The notes below the pieces were generated by a model. The model did no database searches. It was not told the origin of the DNA and worked only from the letters and a program-made list of their open reading frames with translations. A DNA stretch of 37,561 nucleotides from an uncultured Nitrospirota bacterium (GTDB lineage: Bacteria; Nitrospirota; Nitrospiria; SBBL01; SBBT01), in contig CAYRGU010000045.1 in NCBI GenBank assembly GCA_964423845.1, positions 1 to 37,561 of the forward strand, given 5' to 3'. Below are positions 2,949 to 37,561 of this stretch, one piece after another. The translations under genes were made by a program, and so were the position numbers. Positions within the stretch are counted from its first letter, which is position 1. The number at the start of each line of letters is the position of its first letter.

Positions 2949-3956
2949 GTGAGAACGGTTCTTGTCACAGGTGGCGCGGGGTTTATCGGAAGCAATTTTG
3001 TCCGCTATTTCCTTGAGAACAATCCGTCCTATTCCGTCATTAATCTGGATAAGCTGACCTATGCCGGGAACCTTGAGAATTTAACGGATATCGAGGGCCA
3101 TCCACGGCATCGGTTTGTCCGGGGCGATATTAGCGATCGCAAACTGGTTGAGGGGTTGGCCCGTGAAGTGACGGCCATCATTCACTTCGCCGCCGAGACC
3201 CACGTCGATCGATCGATTGTCCAACCGGATGAATTTGTTAAAACCAATGTGTATGGGACCTATATCCTCCTGGAGGTGGCTCGAACCTTTCGGCACAGTC
3301 GCTTCGTCCATGTTTCAACGGATGAAGTGTATGGCAGCCGCCTGGAAGGGTTTTTCAAGGAAGGGGATTCCCTCACGCCGAACAGTCCGTATTCGGCGAC
3401 CAAGGCATCGTCCGATCTTTTAGCCACCGCATACCACAAAACATATCACTTGCCCGTGGTCATCACCCGTTGTTCCAATAATTATGGGCCGTATCAATTT
3501 CCGGAAAAGCTGATCCCCCTGGTGATTACGAATGCCCTGGAGGATAAGCCCATTCCCGTCTATGGCGATGGGCGCTACATGCGGGACTGGCTCTACGTCA
3601 TGGACCATTGCAGTGCCATTGATCGTGTTTTTCACCAGGGCAAGCCGGGGGAGATTTACAATATCGGGGGGCAGTCGGATAAAACAAACCTGGAGGTGAT
3701 TGATCTGATTTTGGAAATGTTGGGAAAGACGAAGTCGCTGATCCAATTTGTGAAGGATCGGCCTGCCCATGACCGCCGGTATGCCATTGATCCGGGTAAG
3801 ATTATTCGAGATCTGGGATGGCGGCCTTCTTATGCGTTTGAGGAGACGCTTGTCAAGACGGTCTCGTGGTATCGAGATCATCCACACTGGTGGCAGCGGG
3901 TGAAGTCGGGGGCCTATCTTGCGATGTATGAAAAGATTTATGGGGTGCCACGATGA
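2949..3956 (+). CDS. rmlB: dTDP-glucose 4,6-dehydratase
   Basis: GGAGFIGS Rossmann motif, catalytic YSATKA, and STDEVYG, all typical of RmlB/RfbB extended SDRs. Confidence 0.95.
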   Translation: MRTVLVTGGAGFIGSNFVRYFLENNPSYSVINLDKLTYAGNLENLTDIEGHPRHRFVRGDISDRKLVEGLAREVTAIIHFAAETHVDRSIVQPDEFVKTNVYGTYILLEVARTFRHSRFVHVSTDEVYGSRLEGFFKEGDSLTPNSPYSATKASSDLLATAYHKTYHLPVVITRCSNNYGPYQFPEKLIPLVITNALEDKPIPVYGDGRYMRDWLYVMDHCSAIDRVFHQGKPGEIYNIGGQSDKTNLEVIDLILEMLGKTKSLIQFVKDRPAHDRRYAIDPGKIIRDLGWRPSYAFEETLVKTVSWYRDHPHWWQRVKSGAYLAMYEKIYGVPR

Positions 3957-14072: not shown

Positions 14073-14145
14073 GGGCCGCTAGCTCAGTTGGTAGAGCACC
14101 GCCCTTTTAAGGCGGGTGTCCCGGGTTCGAATCCCGGGCGGCTCA
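14073..14145 (+). tRNA. tRNA-Lys (anticodon UUU)
   Basis: Hand-folded 73-nt cloverleaf. Acceptor GGGCCGC/GCGGCTC (one G-U). D arm GCTC-AGTTGGTA-GAGC. Anticodon arm CCGCC-CTTTTAA-GGCGG. T arm CCGGG-TTCGAAT-CCCGG. Discriminator A. CCA is not encoded. Confidence 0.92.
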
Positions 14146-27711: not shown

Positions 27712-30348
27712 ATGTTCAGGGCATTTTTAAGAAGAATCATTGGAAGTCGAAATGACCGGGAACTTAAGCGGCTTTGGCCGATCGTTGAGGCCGTTCATGG
27801 CCATGAGGCCTCGATTTCTGCCTTGTCCGATCAGGGATTGCGCGAGAAGACGGCGTCCTATCGCAAACTTCTCGCCGGGTCTCCCTCTGATTTAGAGCGA
27901 TCCAGCCAGCTTTTTATGATTCTTCCGGAGGCGTATGCCGTCGTCCGGGAGGCCTCGCGGAGGGTGCTTTCCATGCGGCATTTTGACGCGCAGATTTTGG
28001 GTGGAATCGCCTTGCATGAAGGAAAGATTACGGAGATGAAGACGGGTGAGGGAAAAACCCTTGTGGCCACGCTGCCGGTCTACCTGAATGCTTTGACCGG
28101 GCGGGGGGTTCACGTCGTGACGGTGAACGATTATCTGGCAAAACGGGACTCAAAATGGATGGGGGAGATTTATCGATTTCTGGGCCTTTCCGTGGGTCTG
28201 GTTCAACATGATGCCCCAGATTTGGAGCGGCAAGCCGCCTATGGTTCGGATGTGACGTATGGGACGAATAATGAATTCGGGTTTGATTACCTGCGCGATA
28301 ACATGAAGTTTGATTCGAAAAAATTTGTTCAGCGGGAACTCAACTATGCCATCCTCGACGAGGTGGACAGCATCCTGATTGATGAGGCGAGAACCCCCCT
28401 TATTATTTCAGGGTCTTCAGAAGAATCAACCGATCTTTATCATCGTGTGAACCAGATCATCCCGCTTTTGAAAAATGAGGAAGACTTTACCGTTGAAGAG
28501 AAGACTCGGACCGTCACGCTCAGCGAAAGTGGTAATACGAAGGTTGAACGGTTACTTGGCCTGGACAACCTTTATGATCTGGCAAACATGACCTTGGTGC
28601 ACCATGTATTACAGGCCCTGAAGGCGCACACCCTTTTCAAGTGCGACGTGGATTATGTGGTGAAAGACGGAGAAGTGATTATTGTGGATGAATTTACGGG
28701 GCGACTGATGCCAGGGCGCCGCTGGAGTGATGGCCTTCATCAAGCGGTCGAGGCAAAAGAAGGGGTGAAGACGGCCAATGAGAACCAGACGTTGGCCTCG
28801 ATTACCTTTCAGAACTATTTCAGGCTCTATCAGAAACTTTCGGGGATGACCGGTACCGCCGATACCGAGGCGGCCGAATTTTCAAAAATATATAACCTGG
28901 AGGTGATGGTCATTCCTCCAAATCGTCCGATGGTTCGAGAGGATTTCGCCGACTTGATCTATCGAACCGAAAAGGAGAAATTCAATGCCATTGTGGATGA
29001 GATTGTCGAGTTGAACAAAACAGGACATCCCGTTTTGGTTGGAACCATCTCCATTGAAAAATCGGAGCGGCTCTCTGCGATGCTCAAGCGTCAGGGCGTT
29101 CCCCATTCGGTTTTAAATGCCAAGTATCATGAAAAAGAGGCGGAGATTATTGCCCAGGCAGGACGCCGTGGGGCGGTGACTATTGCCACCAATATGGCCG
29201 GCCGTGGGACAGATATTCTCCTGGGGGGAAATCCTGATTTTTTAATCAAGCAATATGAGGCACAGCATCCTGATGCGGAGTCGTCTGTGCTGCTTGCGGC
29301 CCGGGAAAGTATTTCTGCGGCGAGTGAAGCAGATCGCCTGGGGGTGATTGCCCTGGGTGGACTTCATATCATTGGGACCGAGCGGCATGAATCCCGGCGG
29401 GTGGATAATCAGCTCCGAGGGCGCGCCGGTCGACAGGGAGATCCGGGCTCTTCCCGGTTTTATCTGTCGCTTGCGGATGATCTTTTACGTATTTTTGGAT
29501 CGGATAAAATCTCAAATCTCATGGCCAAATTAGGCATGGAAGAAGGCGTTCCCATTGAACATGGCATGGTCACGCGCGCGATTGAAAATGCGCAGAAACG
29601 AGTAGAAGGACATCACTTCGATATCCGTAAGCAGCTTTTGGAATATGACGATGTCATGAATCAGCAGCGAACGGTGATTTATCACCGCAGGCGGGAGATT
29701 CTTCCAAGGGAGTCTGTTTCTGACGATCTCCGGGAGATGATTCTTGAACAGGTTGAGGAGATGCTCCCGACCTATTGTCCGGAAAAGGCCTATCCAGAGG
29801 CCTGGGAGGTGGATGGCCTGATTGAGGCGATCACCCACCGGTTTAACCTCACCCTTTCCAAGGAGGTGTTGGGGTTCCCCTCCGTCGGCATTGAGTCGCT
29901 CAAGGAGACGATTCAGCGGGAGGTGGGGCAGGCTTATGAGAGGAAGCGGTCAGAAATAGGGGAAGCGGCGGCCTGCTTTCTGGAAAAGCAGATTTTTTTA
30001 CGAATGATTGACACCCATTGGAAGGATCATCTCCTGGCGATGGATCACCTGAAGGAGGGGATTGGCTTACGGGGTTACGGCCAGAAAGAGCCTCTTTCTG
30101 AATATAAGCGGGAAGGTTTTCAGATGTTCTCGGCCATGATCGAGCGGATTAAGCAGGATACCCTTGAGCAGCTCTTTCGGGTTCAGGTGACCTCCGATCC
30201 GATGCTTCCCGCCCCCAAGGTCCAGCCGGTCCATTTGAATCGTGGAGAGTCAGTCCCTCCGGCGCGCCGGGAGACAAAAAAGGTGGGGAGAAACGACCCT
30301 TGTCCTTGCGGAAGCGGCAAGAAATATAAAAAATGCTGTGGGGCGTGA
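27712..30348 (+). CDS. secA: Preprotein translocase ATPase SecA
   Basis: [14 protein letters not shown] Walker [24 protein letters not shown]-like box and [10 protein letters not shown]. The C-terminal zinc-binding tail is [14 protein letters not shown]. Confidence 0.97.
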
Positions 30349-30443: not shown

Positions 30444-34018
<3,575 letters not shown>

Positions 34019-34022
<4 letters not shown>

Positions 34023-35578
34023 CCACGGAACTCCACGTTTTCGTCAGCTCCGTGCAAAAGGAATTGGAAGACGAGCGACTCATTGTCCAGAATCTAATGA
34101 ACACCGACCCGTTCCTTTCCACGCATTGCGTTCCGGTGCTCTACGAATTCGAGCCGGCCTCACCTGATAAGGCCTCGGAGGGATGTATTAAGGCGCTCGA
34201 CCGTTGCCAGGTCTATTTGCTTATGGTTGGCGTCCAATACGGCGCCCTGGTGCGTAAACTCTCGATCACGCACATGGAATATCGCCGGGCCAAGCAAAGG
34301 AAACTGCCCATTCTTGCCTTCGTTAAGGGTGGCCGCGGCGTGAAACGTGAGGAAGGAACCGGCGCATTCCTCAAGGAACTCGATGACGACGGCCTCAAAT
34401 ACAAGCGTTTTGGTAATGTCATCGAGCTGCAAAAGGAGGTCCGTGCCGCGCTGGTGAATCTCCTCGCAGACCGGTTCGGCATCGTCCCCACCAGCGACGA
34501 GAATGTAATCGCTGAGCAGACGATTGAGGCGACGTCTCCTTTCGAATCGCAGCGGATGGATCGGGTCCGGTGGAAAAACCTCGACCAGGGAGTAGCGAGA
34601 CAATTGATCGCGACGGCATCGGATCTGCCGCCCCAAGAGTTAGCGAGTACGGATGTTCTCGAAGGTGCTGCAGCACGCGGGCTGGTCTGGTTCAACGCGG
34701 ACTCTGGCGAACACTTCGCTACTGCGGCCGGTATCGTGCTTTTAGCGAAAGACCCTTCGGCTGTCTTTCCCCAGTGCCGTATCCTCGCTGACGCCTACCG
34801 TAGTACCGAGCCCGATGGTGACCCACGTGACCAAGAGGATATCCGGGGACCAATGCCCCTGGCGATTGACCGCGCCATTGCCTTCGTCGACCGAAACACC
34901 CGCCATCCCATGAAAGTGGTCGGCCTCAACCGCGTCCGGCTCGACGAGTACCCTGTTGAAGCCCTGCGAGAAGCGCTGGTCAACGCTGTGTCTCACCGTC
35001 GATACGAAGATGCCGGGCGCAAGATCATGCTGGAAGTCTTTTCCGATCGTGTGATCATCGCCAGCCCCGGTCTGCCGCCCGCGCCGATTACCCTCGCCAG
35101 CCTCCGCAAAGGGAAATATCGGCCCTGCTCGCGCAACCCTGTTCTGGCCCAGGGCCTTTCTTACTTTCACCGCATCGAAGAGCGCGGCAGCGGCTTCCGC
35201 CGGATGCACGATCAGATGCTCGACCACGGTCTGGATCAGCCGCTGATCGGCACCGATACGGGTTACTTCCAGATCACCTTCCCGGGGCCGGGCGACGCCA
35301 TCGAGCGGATCCGCGTACCCGAGAAACAGCTTGTAGTGACTCCGGCGGTTGAGGCGCGACTCAGCGACCGGCAGAGACGGATTCTCGGGGAGGCGCTAAG
35401 GACAGGCTTCGTTACCCGGCGTTGGTGCGTGGCCGAGTTCGGGGTGGCTAACGATACGGCCGGGCGTGACCTCAAGTCGTTGGTAGACATAGGATTGCTG
35501 TTGTCAGAGGGCCGGGGGCGGGCCGTGCGTTACCTGCTGCCGCCCCCCGAATCGACCGGGAAACGACCGACTCGCTGA
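34019..35578 (+). CDS. DUF4062-like N-terminal domain fused to a COG2865-like (HATPase_c_4) module and C-terminal winged HTH; putative sensor/regulator of the module
   Basis: ATG overlaps the helicase stop (ATGA, 34019-34022). The N-terminus ([14 protein letters not shown] ... [11 protein letters not shown] ... [10 protein letters not shown] ... LPILAFV) matches the DUF4062 pattern as I recall it. [20 protein letters not shown] ... VIIASPG.LP ... [23 protein letters not shown] matches the 'RecG-like' HATPase_c_4 module of COG2865 proteins. [45 protein letters not shown] is wHTH-like. No AlbA_2/Schlafen N-domain is present. Confidence 0.8.
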
Positions 35579-35639
35579 GGAAATCGCCCGATGGAGAATC
35601 GACCGATAATCGACCGACGGCCCCCCGGAATCGACCGAC
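35549..35639 (+). repeat. Cluster of six AATCGACCGA-like direct repeats spanning the 3' end of the wHTH gene and the spacer before the methyltransferase gene
   Basis: Perfect copies at 35597-35606, 35608-35617 and 35629-35638. 9/10 copies at 35550-35559 and 35582-35591. A one-base-deleted copy at 35562-35571. Longer shared context CCCCCCG(G)AATCGACCG at 35543-35558 and 35621-35637. Confidence 0.9.
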
Positions 35640-35652
35640 GAAGGAAGGACTG

Positions 35653-37561
35653 ATGACCAGGACGCATAAGAAACTCATCGAAGTCGCCCTGCCGCTCGAC
35701 GCCATCAACACGGCCTCGGCGCGGGAAAAATCCATCCGGCACGGCCACCCGAGCACGCTGCACCTGTGGTGGGCGCGGCGGCCGCTGGCGGCGGCGCGGG
35801 CGGTGATCTTCGCGCAGATGGTGGACGACCCGTCGGCGCACCCGGACCTGTTCAAGACCGAGCAGGCGCAAGAGAAGGAGCGGCTGCGGCTGTTCAAGAT
35901 CATCGAGGACCTGGTGCTGTGGGAGAACACCACGAACGAGACGGTCTTGCAGGCGGCGCGCGACGAGATCTGGGCAAGCTGGCGGCGCGCCTGCGCCGAG
36001 AACGCCGACCATCCGCGGGCGAAGGATCTGTTCGACCGCAACAAGCTCCCCGCCTTCCACGATCCCTTCGCCGGCGGCGGCGCGCTGCCGCTGGAGGCGC
36101 AGAGGCTGGGGCTGGAGAGCTACGCCAGCGACCTGAACCCGGTAGCGGTGCTCATCAACAAGGCGATGATCGAGATCCCGCCGAAGTTCGCGGGCAAACC
36201 GCCGGTCAATCCGAAAGCAAGGGGAAACATGGGCCACTCGGGGAGCTGGCACGGAGCACAGGGATTGGCCGAGGACGTGCGCTACTACGGCCAGTGGATG
36301 CGCGACGAGGCCGAGAAGCGCATCGGCCACCTCTACCCGAAGGTCGAGGTCACCGCCGAGATGGTGAAGGCGCGGCCGGACCTGAAGCAGTACGCGGGCC
36401 GGAAGCTCACCGTGATCGCCTGGCTCTGGGCACGCACGGTGAAGAGCCCGAACCCGGCCTTTGCCCAGGTGGACGTGCCGCTCGCCTCGACCTTCATGCT
36501 CTCCACCAAGCCGGGGAAGGAAGCGTACGTCGAGCCGGTGATCCTGGGAGCGCCGGCGTCCCCGCCGGCAGGGAAAGAACAAGCCGCCGGGACGGCGGCG
36601 GTCCCAGGCTACCGCTTCACGGTGAAGATGGGGAAGCCGAAGGATGCGGAGGGGGCGAAGAACGGCACCAAGCTGTCGCGCGGGGCGAACTTCCGTTGTG
36701 TGATGTCGGGCACACCGATCGCTACCAACTACATCAGGGCTGAAGCACAAGCCGGACGCATGGCTGTGCGGTTGATGGCTGTCGTAGCAGAGGGCGAGCG
36801 TGGGCGCGTGTACGTGACGCCGCAGTCGGAAATGGAATCTGTCGCCCGATCAGCCTCGCCAGCATGGAAGCCCGATCTCAAGGTGCCCACGCCGTGTCAC
36901 GACGTTGACCGACTTCCGATGTACGGCATGCCGACGTGGGGTGACGCTTTCACCCCCCGCCAGCTCGTGGCGCTGACGACCTTCTCCGACCTGGTGCAGG
37001 AAGCGCGCGAGCGGGTGCAGCGCGACGCCCTCGCCGCCGCCCTCCCCGACGACCCCAAGCCCCTGCGCGACGGCGGCACCGGCGCCACCGCCTACGCCGA
37101 GGCGGTGGGGGTGTACTTGGCTTTTGCGTTGAGCAAGCAGGCGGACCTCGGCAACAGCCTTTGCCGATGGGAGCCGATCGCCCAGTGCCCTCGACAGCTT
37201 TTCGGTCGCCAGGCGATCCCGATGATCTGGGACTACGCCGAGGGCAACCCGCTCGGCGACAGTTCGGGCGCATGGGTAGTTTTCGTGGACGGCATCGTCA
37301 AGGCGTTCACGAAGGCGTTCGAAACCGTGAAGGCGACCGCTGTGGGTCACGCTGAACAAGCCGATGCAGGAATGCAGAGCGTCGCTCTCGGGAAAGTCGT
37401 CTCCACCGACCCGCCGTATTACGACAACATCGGCTACGCCGACCTGTCGGACTTCTTCTACGTCTGGCTACGCCGCTCGTTGCGACCCGTCTTTCCCGAC
37501 CTCTTCGCCACACTTGCGGTGCCCAAGGCGGAAGAGCTGGTCGCCACGCCCTACCGCCACG
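35653..37561 (+). CDS. DUF1156-type (COG1743-like) DNA amino-methyltransferase; the 3' end is truncated by the window edge (636 codons visible)
   Basis: Absent from the ORF track because there is no in-window stop. I translated it by hand from ATG 35653 (RBS AAGGAAGGA at 35641-35649): [51 protein letters not shown]... The HLWWARRP signature is at 35761-35784. SAM motif I DPFAGGG is at 36061-36081. Catalytic motif IV DPPY is at 37408-37419. The frame stays open to 37561. Confidence 0.9.

Follow-up and report, generated by a model that had tools for sequence, protein, structure and literature searches.

A DUF4062 protein embedded in an Hma locus is a predicted mobile NADase module whose winged helix covaries with a repeat array at its own stop codon

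Introduction

The DUF4062 domain, called NIR in one paper, has been described as a TIR-like NADase that acts in abortive infection through the depletion of nicotinamide adenine dinucleotide (NAD+) (bioRxiv 10.64898/2026.05.01.722283, 10.64898/2026.06.25.731849, 10.64898/2026.09.04.749371). In these three preprints, which deal with the Swarozyc, Evangelion, Avs2, Vulcan, and Vesta systems, a catalytic glutamate is essential, and a variable auxiliary region does the sensing; E97 of KpSwz and F11 and E87-Y88 of Eva01 were needed for defense or NADase activity. Here, we describe a DUF4062 protein of 519 amino acids (aa), hereafter the target protein, encoded on the forward strand at 34019..35578 of a 37,561-nucleotide (nt) stretch of DNA from an uncultured Nitrospirota bacterium (GenBank assembly GCA_964423845.1, contig CAYRGU010000045.1). 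This whole stretch is called the window below, and the gene lies in it between hmaA and hmaB of an Hma locus.

Two other groups of described systems are close to this protein. Schlafen-HisKinase-HTH proteins, the largest Schlafen class, make up 19.2% of the prokaryotic Schlafens and are reported defense effectors, with the Schlafen domain being a defense tRNase (PMC13056530; bioRxiv 10.64898/2026.05.29.728809). In the Schlafen-Argonaute RzAgo, E314 and N318 were reported to bind Mg-ATP, and the module to which they belong drives ATP-dependent oligomerization. Hma systems, for their part, are known to house other genes: Payne et al. found that 62.7% of them hold embedded genes and that 22.8% of the embedded genes are known defense systems, and several new embedded candidates were validated experimentally (bioRxiv 10.1101/2024.01.29.577857). 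Table S7 of that work lists proteins of 514-518 aa with DUF4062 and HATPase_c_4 as CLU_00184 in COG2865 family FAM_00002 but does not discuss them. In the main texts of the three DUF4062 preprints, there is no mention of DUF4062 combined with a GHKL module plus a winged helix-turn-helix (wHTH), and in the literature on HATPase_c_4 and COG2865, we found no functional study of this GHKL-wHTH chassis.

We conclude that the target protein is probably a self-contained mobile anti-phage NADase module that is embedded between hmaA and hmaB and whose wHTH reads an array of direct repeats at the 3' end of its own gene, rather than a regulator or subunit of Hma. The array was absent from a first-pass annotation of this DNA, and we rate it the most informative feature of the locus.

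Results

Domains and conserved residues. The target protein consists of an N-terminal DUF4062/NIR TIR-like domain (aa 1-150; 34019..34468), a linker with a GHKL ATP-binding module (aa 151-425; 34469..35293), and a C-terminal wHTH (aa 446-506; 35354..35536), all on the forward strand. By profile hidden Markov models, both of the Pfam domains that the first-pass annotation had suggested were found above the cutoff, DUF4062 (PF13271) at aa 7-91 with 62.8 bits (cutoff, 24.7; E, 3.6e-17) and HATPase_c_4 (PF13749) at aa 333-421 with 78.9 bits (cutoff, 26; E, 3e-22). All of the sequence motifs that it had named occur in the protein, most of them invariant throughout 113 homologs.

In a phmmer search against the PDB, aa 5-107 alone aligned to KpSwz (10wc). 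In the target, E87-Y88 (codons at 34277-34282) aligns with E97 of KpSwz and with E87-Y88 of Eva01, and F8 (codon at 34040-42) aligns with Eva01 F11. Among the 113 homologs, F8 is invariant, and E87-Y88 is invariant or nearly so; most residues of the N-terminal motifs (F8, S10, S11, E15, L16, E19, R20, Y66, Y74, and G75, followed by S82, E87, P97, L99, and F101) are likewise invariant. Foldseek matched the N-terminal domain to TIR domains (7fcc, 4c6r, 7uxu, and 8fz9) and to nucleoside 2-deoxyribosyltransferases, with E-values of only 1e-2 to 1e-3 and with Ras-like folds scoring alike. The AlphaFold2 (AF2) model shows a TIR-like or flavodoxin-like α/β fold with a predicted local distance difference test score (pLDDT) of 80-98 over aa 1-165. 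On the basis of these alignments, the N-terminal domain is predicted to be a TIR-like NADase with E87 as the catalytic residue, and the effector role that the first-pass annotation had offered as one option is backed by the 2026 preprints.

We considered that the catalytic glutamate might have been swapped for the invariant His85, as the KpSwz chain and the target read 'SFTE' and 'SITH', respectively. This was rejected because the PDB chain of KpSwz is the E97A mutant and its index is the residue number minus 13 (D71 agrees), which sets A84 of the chain opposite E87 of the target and therefore E97 at E87, in line with the E87-Y88 motif of Eva01. His85 itself (34271-34273) is invariant in the family and stands at -2 from the catalytic glutamate, a position taken by Glu95 in KpSwz; an influence on catalysis or on the choice of substrate is possible.

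In the N-box of the GHKL module, E318 (codon at 34970-72) and N322 (34982-84) are invariant across the 67 diverse sequences of a deep alignment and correspond to E314 and N318 of RzAgo, by which the module is predicted to bind ATP. Among the 113 homologs, the motif residues E318, N322, H326, S349, P350, and G351 and, further on, R372, N373, P374, E387-G390, and G392 are mostly invariant. The wHTH varies more than any other part of the protein. Pfam HTH matches at aa 449-502 stayed below the threshold, yet the AF2 model, a profile search, and Foldseek agree on the C-terminal winged HTH that the first-pass annotation had proposed. The model has helices at aa 450-462, 467-474, and 478-490 and a wing, with a pLDDT of about 90-97 over aa 446-506; the 67-sequence profile matched 3LMM (DIP2311) in the PDB with an E-value of 6.5e-29 at positions 286-430 (GHKL) and 461-515 (wHTH); and Foldseek found 3LMM with the model (E, 2.6e-14) and MarR, AspA, and CzrA with the wHTH. 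A shallow alignment (72% mean identity) gave a pLDDT of 30-55 over aa 170-440, and the model used here was instead built from a deeper alignment (pLDDT, 90.5; predicted template modeling score, 0.79).

A repeat array anchored to the stop codon. Six copies of the 10-mer AAWCGMCCGR lie at 35550-35638 (90 nt) in two triplets with start-to-start distances of 11 and 21 nt. The first triplet (35550..35591, forward strand) is degenerate, with AATCGACCGG, AAACGACCGA, and AATCGCCCGA at 35550, 35561, and 35582, and spans the last codons and the stop of the target gene. The second (35597..35638, forward strand) is perfect, with AATCGACCGA at 35597, 35608, and 35629, and ends 14 nt ahead of the hmaB ATG. 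The whole window has 13 matches to the 10-mer, compared to 4.0±1.7 expected, and six of the 13 are in the array.

The same arrangement recurs across a census of 82 non-redundant loci encoding the target family. Always located on the coding strand, it has the general form [AATC-core-RA]-N-[same]-N11-[same]. By strict criteria, 66 of the 82 loci have a triplet at or overlapping the stop codon, compared to none of 40 shuffled loci, and the remaining loci mostly have degenerate or shifted copies on inspection by eye. Our first detector, which was anchored on AATC, under-called, and most of its negatives likewise carry degenerate or shifted triplets by eye. The first copy starts at a median offset of 0 from the stop codon (interquartile range [IQR], -1 to +4). 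Copies inside one locus share one core, while between loci there are at least 18 different cores (ATCC, GTCA, TTCC, GACC, GTCC, and others). We found no description in the literature of such a pairing in specificity between a wHTH and 3' repeats.

The position of the array in the window, where it fills the spacer to 14 nt before the hmaB start, would also suit an operator. The target would then be a transcription factor for its host system, binding ahead of hmaB/hmaC or of a restriction-modification (R-M) methyltransferase, with DUF4062 and GHKL sensing a ligand. The family is labeled 'predicted HTH transcriptional regulator' in databases, the next gene often encodes a methyltransferase (HmaB, HsdM, or type III Mod), and a promoter and terminator scan of the locus gave nothing beyond shuffle expectation, with none separate before hmaB. 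We nevertheless regard this explanation as unlikely. The array is tied to the target's stop codon, while the distance to the next gene varies widely (median, 200 nt; IQR, 81-558), and in 18 of 60 loci that gene is encoded on the other strand. We therefore assign the array to the target instead of hmaB and reject its placement as an operator for hmaB. Stand-alone loci (L001 and L003) retain the array as well. A role confined to transcription also fits poorly with the invariance of the catalytic glutamate of a proven NADase family and with an N-terminal slot that, as described below, holds effector-type enzymes (nuclease, deaminase, and NADase).

Covariation of the wHTH with the repeat core. Over aa 446-506, the mean identity was 0.695 for pairs of proteins with the same repeat core and 0.454 for pairs with different cores, a difference (Δ) of 0.237 that was reached in 0 of 1,000 label permutations (permutation maximum, 0.034). 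The covariation is limited to the wHTH, as Δ was ≤0.011 and not significant for the DUF4062, middle, and GHKL regions. Every core has its own wHTH allele, and the residues with the highest mutual information with the core are 471, 473, 478, 482, 485, and 487, in helix 2 and the recognition helix. Along the protein, covariation is zero to about aa 445, sets in at about aa 446, is +0.27 to +0.35 at aa 451-485 with its peak in helix 2 and the recognition helix (aa 461-475), and drops to +0.17 at aa 491-505, nearest the repeats. This profile runs opposite to what decay through physical linkage would give. The nearest wHTH allele also predicted the core correctly in 35 of 42 loci from an independent metagenome set. 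Because the covariation is confined to the wHTH and peaks in its recognition elements, we infer that the wHTH reads the repeat, and DNA binding is predicted. PhoB/OmpR-type winged helices bind tandem direct repeats of 11 bp, and distances of 11 and 21 bp in the array would likewise set head-to-tail protomers on one face of the DNA.

Relatives of the chassis and the N-terminal slot. An exhaustive search with aa 150-519 as the query returned 8,508 representatives at an E-value of ≤1e-3, while a word-seeded homolog search with the same query returned the same close family alone. Ten full-length relatives scanned with Pfam all had HATPase_c_4, and most had a detectable HTH, but their N termini differed: six carry a cytidine/dCMP deaminase (P0213, P0216, P0239, P0240, P0244, and P0253), two SLFN_AlbA_2 (P0221 and P0249), one DUF4062 (P0166), and one a weak OMPdecase-like match (P0229). 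The N-terminal position is thus a general swap slot for effectors, be it Schlafen/AlbA_2, a deaminase, or DUF4062. We found no description of the deaminase plus GHKL-wHTH architecture in the literature; proteins of this kind form a sizeable group and gave AID/APOBEC-like matches (loci L089, L232, and L234). Among other relatives, P0254 (2918 aa) has four separate stretches that match the chassis, and P0096 (660 aa) belongs to the close family but carries a fused PDDEXK_3 (GxxExxY) domain.

The canonical COG2865 proteins P0221 and P0249 align with the target from aa ~224-230 on, close to the module start at aa ~230 that the first-pass annotation had read from the sequence, and their AlbA_2 domain (aa ~3-124) lies N-terminal to that. 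Pfam gave no AlbA_2 (PF04326) match in the target, even at an E-value of ≤0.1, and the proposal that DUF4062 stands in place of the usual AlbA_2/Schlafen domain therefore holds. In PADLOC-DB v2.0.0, the target matched no Hma model and no HEC/PDC model, and its only matches were weak ones to pAgo-associated and SoFic models. The pAgo-associated matches had raised the idea of a divergent AlbA_2 concealed in aa 173-351, which was rejected given the missing PF04326 signal and the start of the canonical alignments at aa ~224; they arise because SLFN-pAgos carry the same PF13749 GHKL domain.

Arrays were also seen in more distant relatives. A DUF4062 relative at 35% identity has three copies of AATTGACAAC at -13, -2, and +20. 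Two canonical AlbA_2-GHKL-wHTH genes have triplets spaced 20 and then 12, compared to 11 and then 21 in the DUF4062 family; their motifs, of the GTGCAACAATT and ATGAGGCAATT types, lie right at the stop codon, and one triplet overlaps it (L090:2862-2900 and ~3000-3040; L233:1565-1610). The deaminase-fused genes have 3' direct repeats, either a 22-nt tandem (L234) or recurring adjacent pairs. Such arrays appear to extend to the whole GHKL-wHTH chassis class.

Family spread and genomic settings. The first-pass annotation had called the fusion unusual and had suggested coupling to the helicase. The target family is large and of unusual uniformity, with >1,300 clusters at 90% identity, the top 120 being 72-81% identical and 511-522 aa long, in addition to its entry in the table of Payne et al. 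At least 125 species-level genomes encode relatives with 63-75% identity, with hosts among the Desulfobacterota, Verrucomicrobiota, Actinomycetota, Acidobacteriota, and Planctomycetota and, in the archaea, Methanosarcina, Methanoperedens, and Methanoculleus. Hma is present in 34 of the 82 loci (41%), usually in the order HmaA-target-HmaB-HmaC and at times with more embedded genes, and absent from 48 (59%). In the latter, the gene lies before type III Mod/Res on elements with a TrwC relaxase, coupling protein, and serine recombinase, beside type I HsdM, beside integrases, on conjugative elements, or alone. The fusion is thus neither rare nor tied to the helicase. Most loci lack Hma, and Hma systems are an established home for independent defenses, so that we take the target for an autonomous module occupying an embedding slot that was already known. 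Of the earlier interpretation, the replacement of AlbA_2 and the effector option stand, while the rarity and the coupling to the helicase do not.

These data also bear on whether the target could be an integral fourth subunit of an Hma subtype that is translationally coupled to HmaA and acts with the helicase. The ATG of the target and the stop of the upstream 1192-aa open reading frame (ORF) (30444..34022) share an ATGA overlap in the window, HmaA overlaps or directly adjoins the target in 19 of the 28 loci that keep the HmaA C terminus, and HmaA is 77-79% identical across the target-bearing Hma loci. The majority of loci without Hma, where the same protein (about 70% identity) stands alone, beside R-M genes of type I or III, or on conjugative elements, make this explanation very unlikely in our judgment, as do the lack of a match to any PADLOC Hma model and the assortment of genes embedded in Hma systems, known independent defenses among them, at the frequencies cited above.

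In one Verrucomicrobiia contig (JBAPQW010000022.1), two of the loci (L018 and L019) lie about 39 kb apart in opposite orientations. They are two copies of an element with a relaxase, the target, and type III R-M, in the same gene order and with targets equally similar to the query, which is consistent with an element that was recently duplicated or is actively moving.

The Hma locus in the window. The target ORF starts with ATG and stops with TGA at 35576-78. Upstream, hmaA (30444..34022, forward strand) encodes an SNF2/DEAD helicase with NOV_C, identified by Pfam and by a full-length PADLOC HmaA match of 1690 bits. Downstream, hmaB (35653..37561, forward strand) encodes a DUF1156 adenine methyltransferase (PADLOC HmaB, 1015 bits; Pfam DUF1156) and is cut by the window end, so that the window stops before any hmaC could appear; in a related locus (L052), hmaC follows hmaB (HmaC, 1054 bits). 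The G+C content rises from ~0.50 to 0.61-0.67 right after secA (~30.1 kb; secA ends at 30348, and hmaA begins at 30444), which suggests that the Hma locus is a horizontally acquired island. The only tRNAs in the window are at 14073 and 20436, and none flank the Hma locus. The right end of the island, with any integrase there, lies past the window edge.

Discussion

Our results point to a protein that would carry its own effector, its own ATP-binding module, and a DNA reader matched to its own gene. If the target is the self-contained NADase module that we favor, the predicted NADase activity, DNA binding by the wHTH, direction of control, and trigger could be joined as follows. Newly made target protein would dock head to tail in cis on the array of its own gene, giving a resting or autoregulated state. 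Infection would then change the docked state, either because the array is lost, occupied, or out-competed or through ATP-driven oligomerization of the GHKL module. The TIR-like domains would meet, NAD+ would be hydrolyzed, and the infected cell would arrest, resulting in abortive infection. The direction of control by the array, that is, sequestration or autoregulation as opposed to a scaffold for activation, is a guess.

Several observations weigh against this reading. In the N-terminal domain, the Q/W/E motif of Evangelion and Swarozyc reads A52-S53-E54, with the glutamate alone being kept. The DNA that encodes the wHTH adjoins the repeats, and co-inheritance alone would give some covariation. 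In Swarozyc, the auxiliary domain with a multivalent ligand activates the NADase, as reported in the Swarozyc preprint, which calls for caution regarding a purely inhibitory tether. In L026, two canonical AlbA_2 genes lack an obvious array, and triplets of this locus (4606, 6404, 8610, and 11582) are found behind HmaA and behind two ABC-ATPase cassettes as well. An unbiased metagenome scan for the pattern recovered 76 loci with target-type triplets; a chassis ORF ends at the triplet in 50 of them, but 18 are orphans without the gene, and another 8 have no upstream sequence. Viral contigs carry homogeneous triplets of the same geometry with the cores GACC, GTCC, TTCC, and xACC without the gene (IMG/VR contigs L092, L095, L096, L104, and L106, at oriented positions 1531, 5043, 7065, 2298, and 6679, respectively); a search for the target gene on the viral contigs found none, and there is no wHTH homolog beside the viral arrays either. 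Gene-free arrays of the same cores may thus have a role beyond binding the target protein, and those on viral contigs could be decoys, triggers, or relics.

Among the genes near the viral arrays, as annotated by eye, are those for a prim-pol/helicase, a large terminase, and a tyrosine integrase, and there is a TROVE/vWA gene that adjoins a tRNA. A search with the generic triplet pattern additionally catches AATCCCCCGA triplets in the palindromic context TCGGGGGAATCCCCCGA in six related viral contigs from IMG/VR (L091, L094, L099, L100, L109, and L111), and AATCAATTGA triplets recur in several metagenome samples, with about half of the loci coming from Ga0126342 (L112, L137, L149, and others). 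Both are probably unrelated repeat families.

Orphan arrays occur next to gene remnants as well, namely, a truncated target (L201), an HmaA C terminus followed by arrays (L173), and an HmaB N-terminal fragment (L231). In L020:9095-9616, six triplets with differing cores lie downstream of the target, and similar tracts are found in L121, L177, and L224. Such stacked tracts look like relics of module turnover or cassette-junction sites. If all triplets were cassette-junction or recombination sites that no protein reads, the covariation would merely reflect the co-transfer of the 3' end of the gene with its flank. The triplets behind other cassettes in L026, the stacked tracts with different cores, the arrays joined to the remnants in L231 and L201, and a viral array about 480 nt from an integrase gene all speak for this explanation. 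It has difficulty in accounting for a covariation that starts sharply at the wHTH boundary and peaks in the recognition elements instead of beside the repeats, and one core per locus implies a sequence-specific reader. The spacing is in helical phase. No recombinase is consistently linked to the loci, and distant chassis genes show the same geometry with unrelated motifs. We consider it improbable that the triplets are recombination sites and nothing else, but recombination sites and a wHTH that reads the repeats are not mutually exclusive. Orphan and stacked arrays fit relics of module turnover and leave room for cassette exchange and for decoys or triggers on mobile DNA.

It is tempting to extend this scheme to the whole GHKL-wHTH class, each protein loading in cis onto a private array at its stop codon and its effector (NADase, tRNase, or deaminase) firing when the array is destroyed, occupied, or out-competed. 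We hold this generalization only tentatively and think it rather doubtful. If it were true, an arms race with mobile or viral DNA whose arrays serve as decoys or triggers would lie behind the diversity of repeats and wHTHs, stacked orphan arrays would record successive turnovers of modules, and the mechanism would concern tens of thousands of genes, which are among the commonest of those lying within R-M, BREX, and Hma loci.

It was only in 2025-2026 that an anti-phage effector role was shown for DUF4062 NADases and for prokaryotic Schlafens, and the GHKL-wHTH chassis now emerges as a platform on which a nuclease, an NADase, or a deaminase can be exchanged. The private repeat array at the stop codon provides its wHTH with a concrete, sequence-predictable candidate ligand, and the pairing between the two has diversified into many specificities. 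The stop-codon triplets offer a simple DNA signature for annotating these modules and possibly a handle on the turnover of embedded cassettes, and the role of COG2865 proteins inside R-M, BREX, and Hma loci becomes directly testable.

In comparison with the described DUF4062 systems, the target shares the N-terminal DUF4062, the catalytic glutamate in E-Y, and the aromatic residue with Swarozyc (KpSwz), Evangelion (Eva01), PsAvs2, Vulcan, and Vesta. It also resembles the Swarozyc, Evangelion, and NIR systems in having a conserved core with a variable auxiliary region, in horizontal transfer, and in its association with defense loci. In contrast to Swarozyc and Evangelion, it does not retain the Q/W/E motif, and in place of the portal-binding auxiliary domain of KpSwz it has a COG2865/DIP2311-type GHKL and wHTH; the KpSwz auxiliary domain has an HTH/winged fold as well, yet it is not homologous to this part of the target. 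The likely ligand also differs, being DNA repeats at the end of its own gene and not a phage portal or replication protein.

The repeats of ~11 bp in head-to-tail order recall PhoB/OmpR winged helices and iterons with cis-acting Rep proteins, such as RepA of plasmid R1, although this is an analogy only. In those systems, the sites adjoin the gene of the binder, and the specificities of protein and site co-diversify. The target differs from them in having no receiver domain or replication origin and in having its sites at the 3' end of the gene.

Like the Hma-embedded systems of Payne et al., the target gene has hmaA and hmaB on either side in the same orientation and is also found outside Hma, as in the pattern on which their 'guilt by embedding' rests, but it is not among the named HEC/PDC embedded candidates. 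With the Schlafen-HisKinase-HTH proteins ('Schlatpase'-HTH, COG2865; 3LMM), it shares the PF13749 plus wHTH chassis, the N-box glutamate and asparagine, and the location inside R-M, BREX, and Hma loci (FAM_00002 of Payne et al.), and sampled members of that group have 3' triplets (PMC13056530 and bioRxiv 10.64898/2026.05.29.728809 for the group). It differs in that the Schlafen/AlbA_2 nuclease is replaced by a predicted NADase, so that the expected output is NAD+ depletion and not tRNA cleavage. The target is thus best described as a predicted NADase-type DUF4062 defense protein on a Schlatpase-type chassis.

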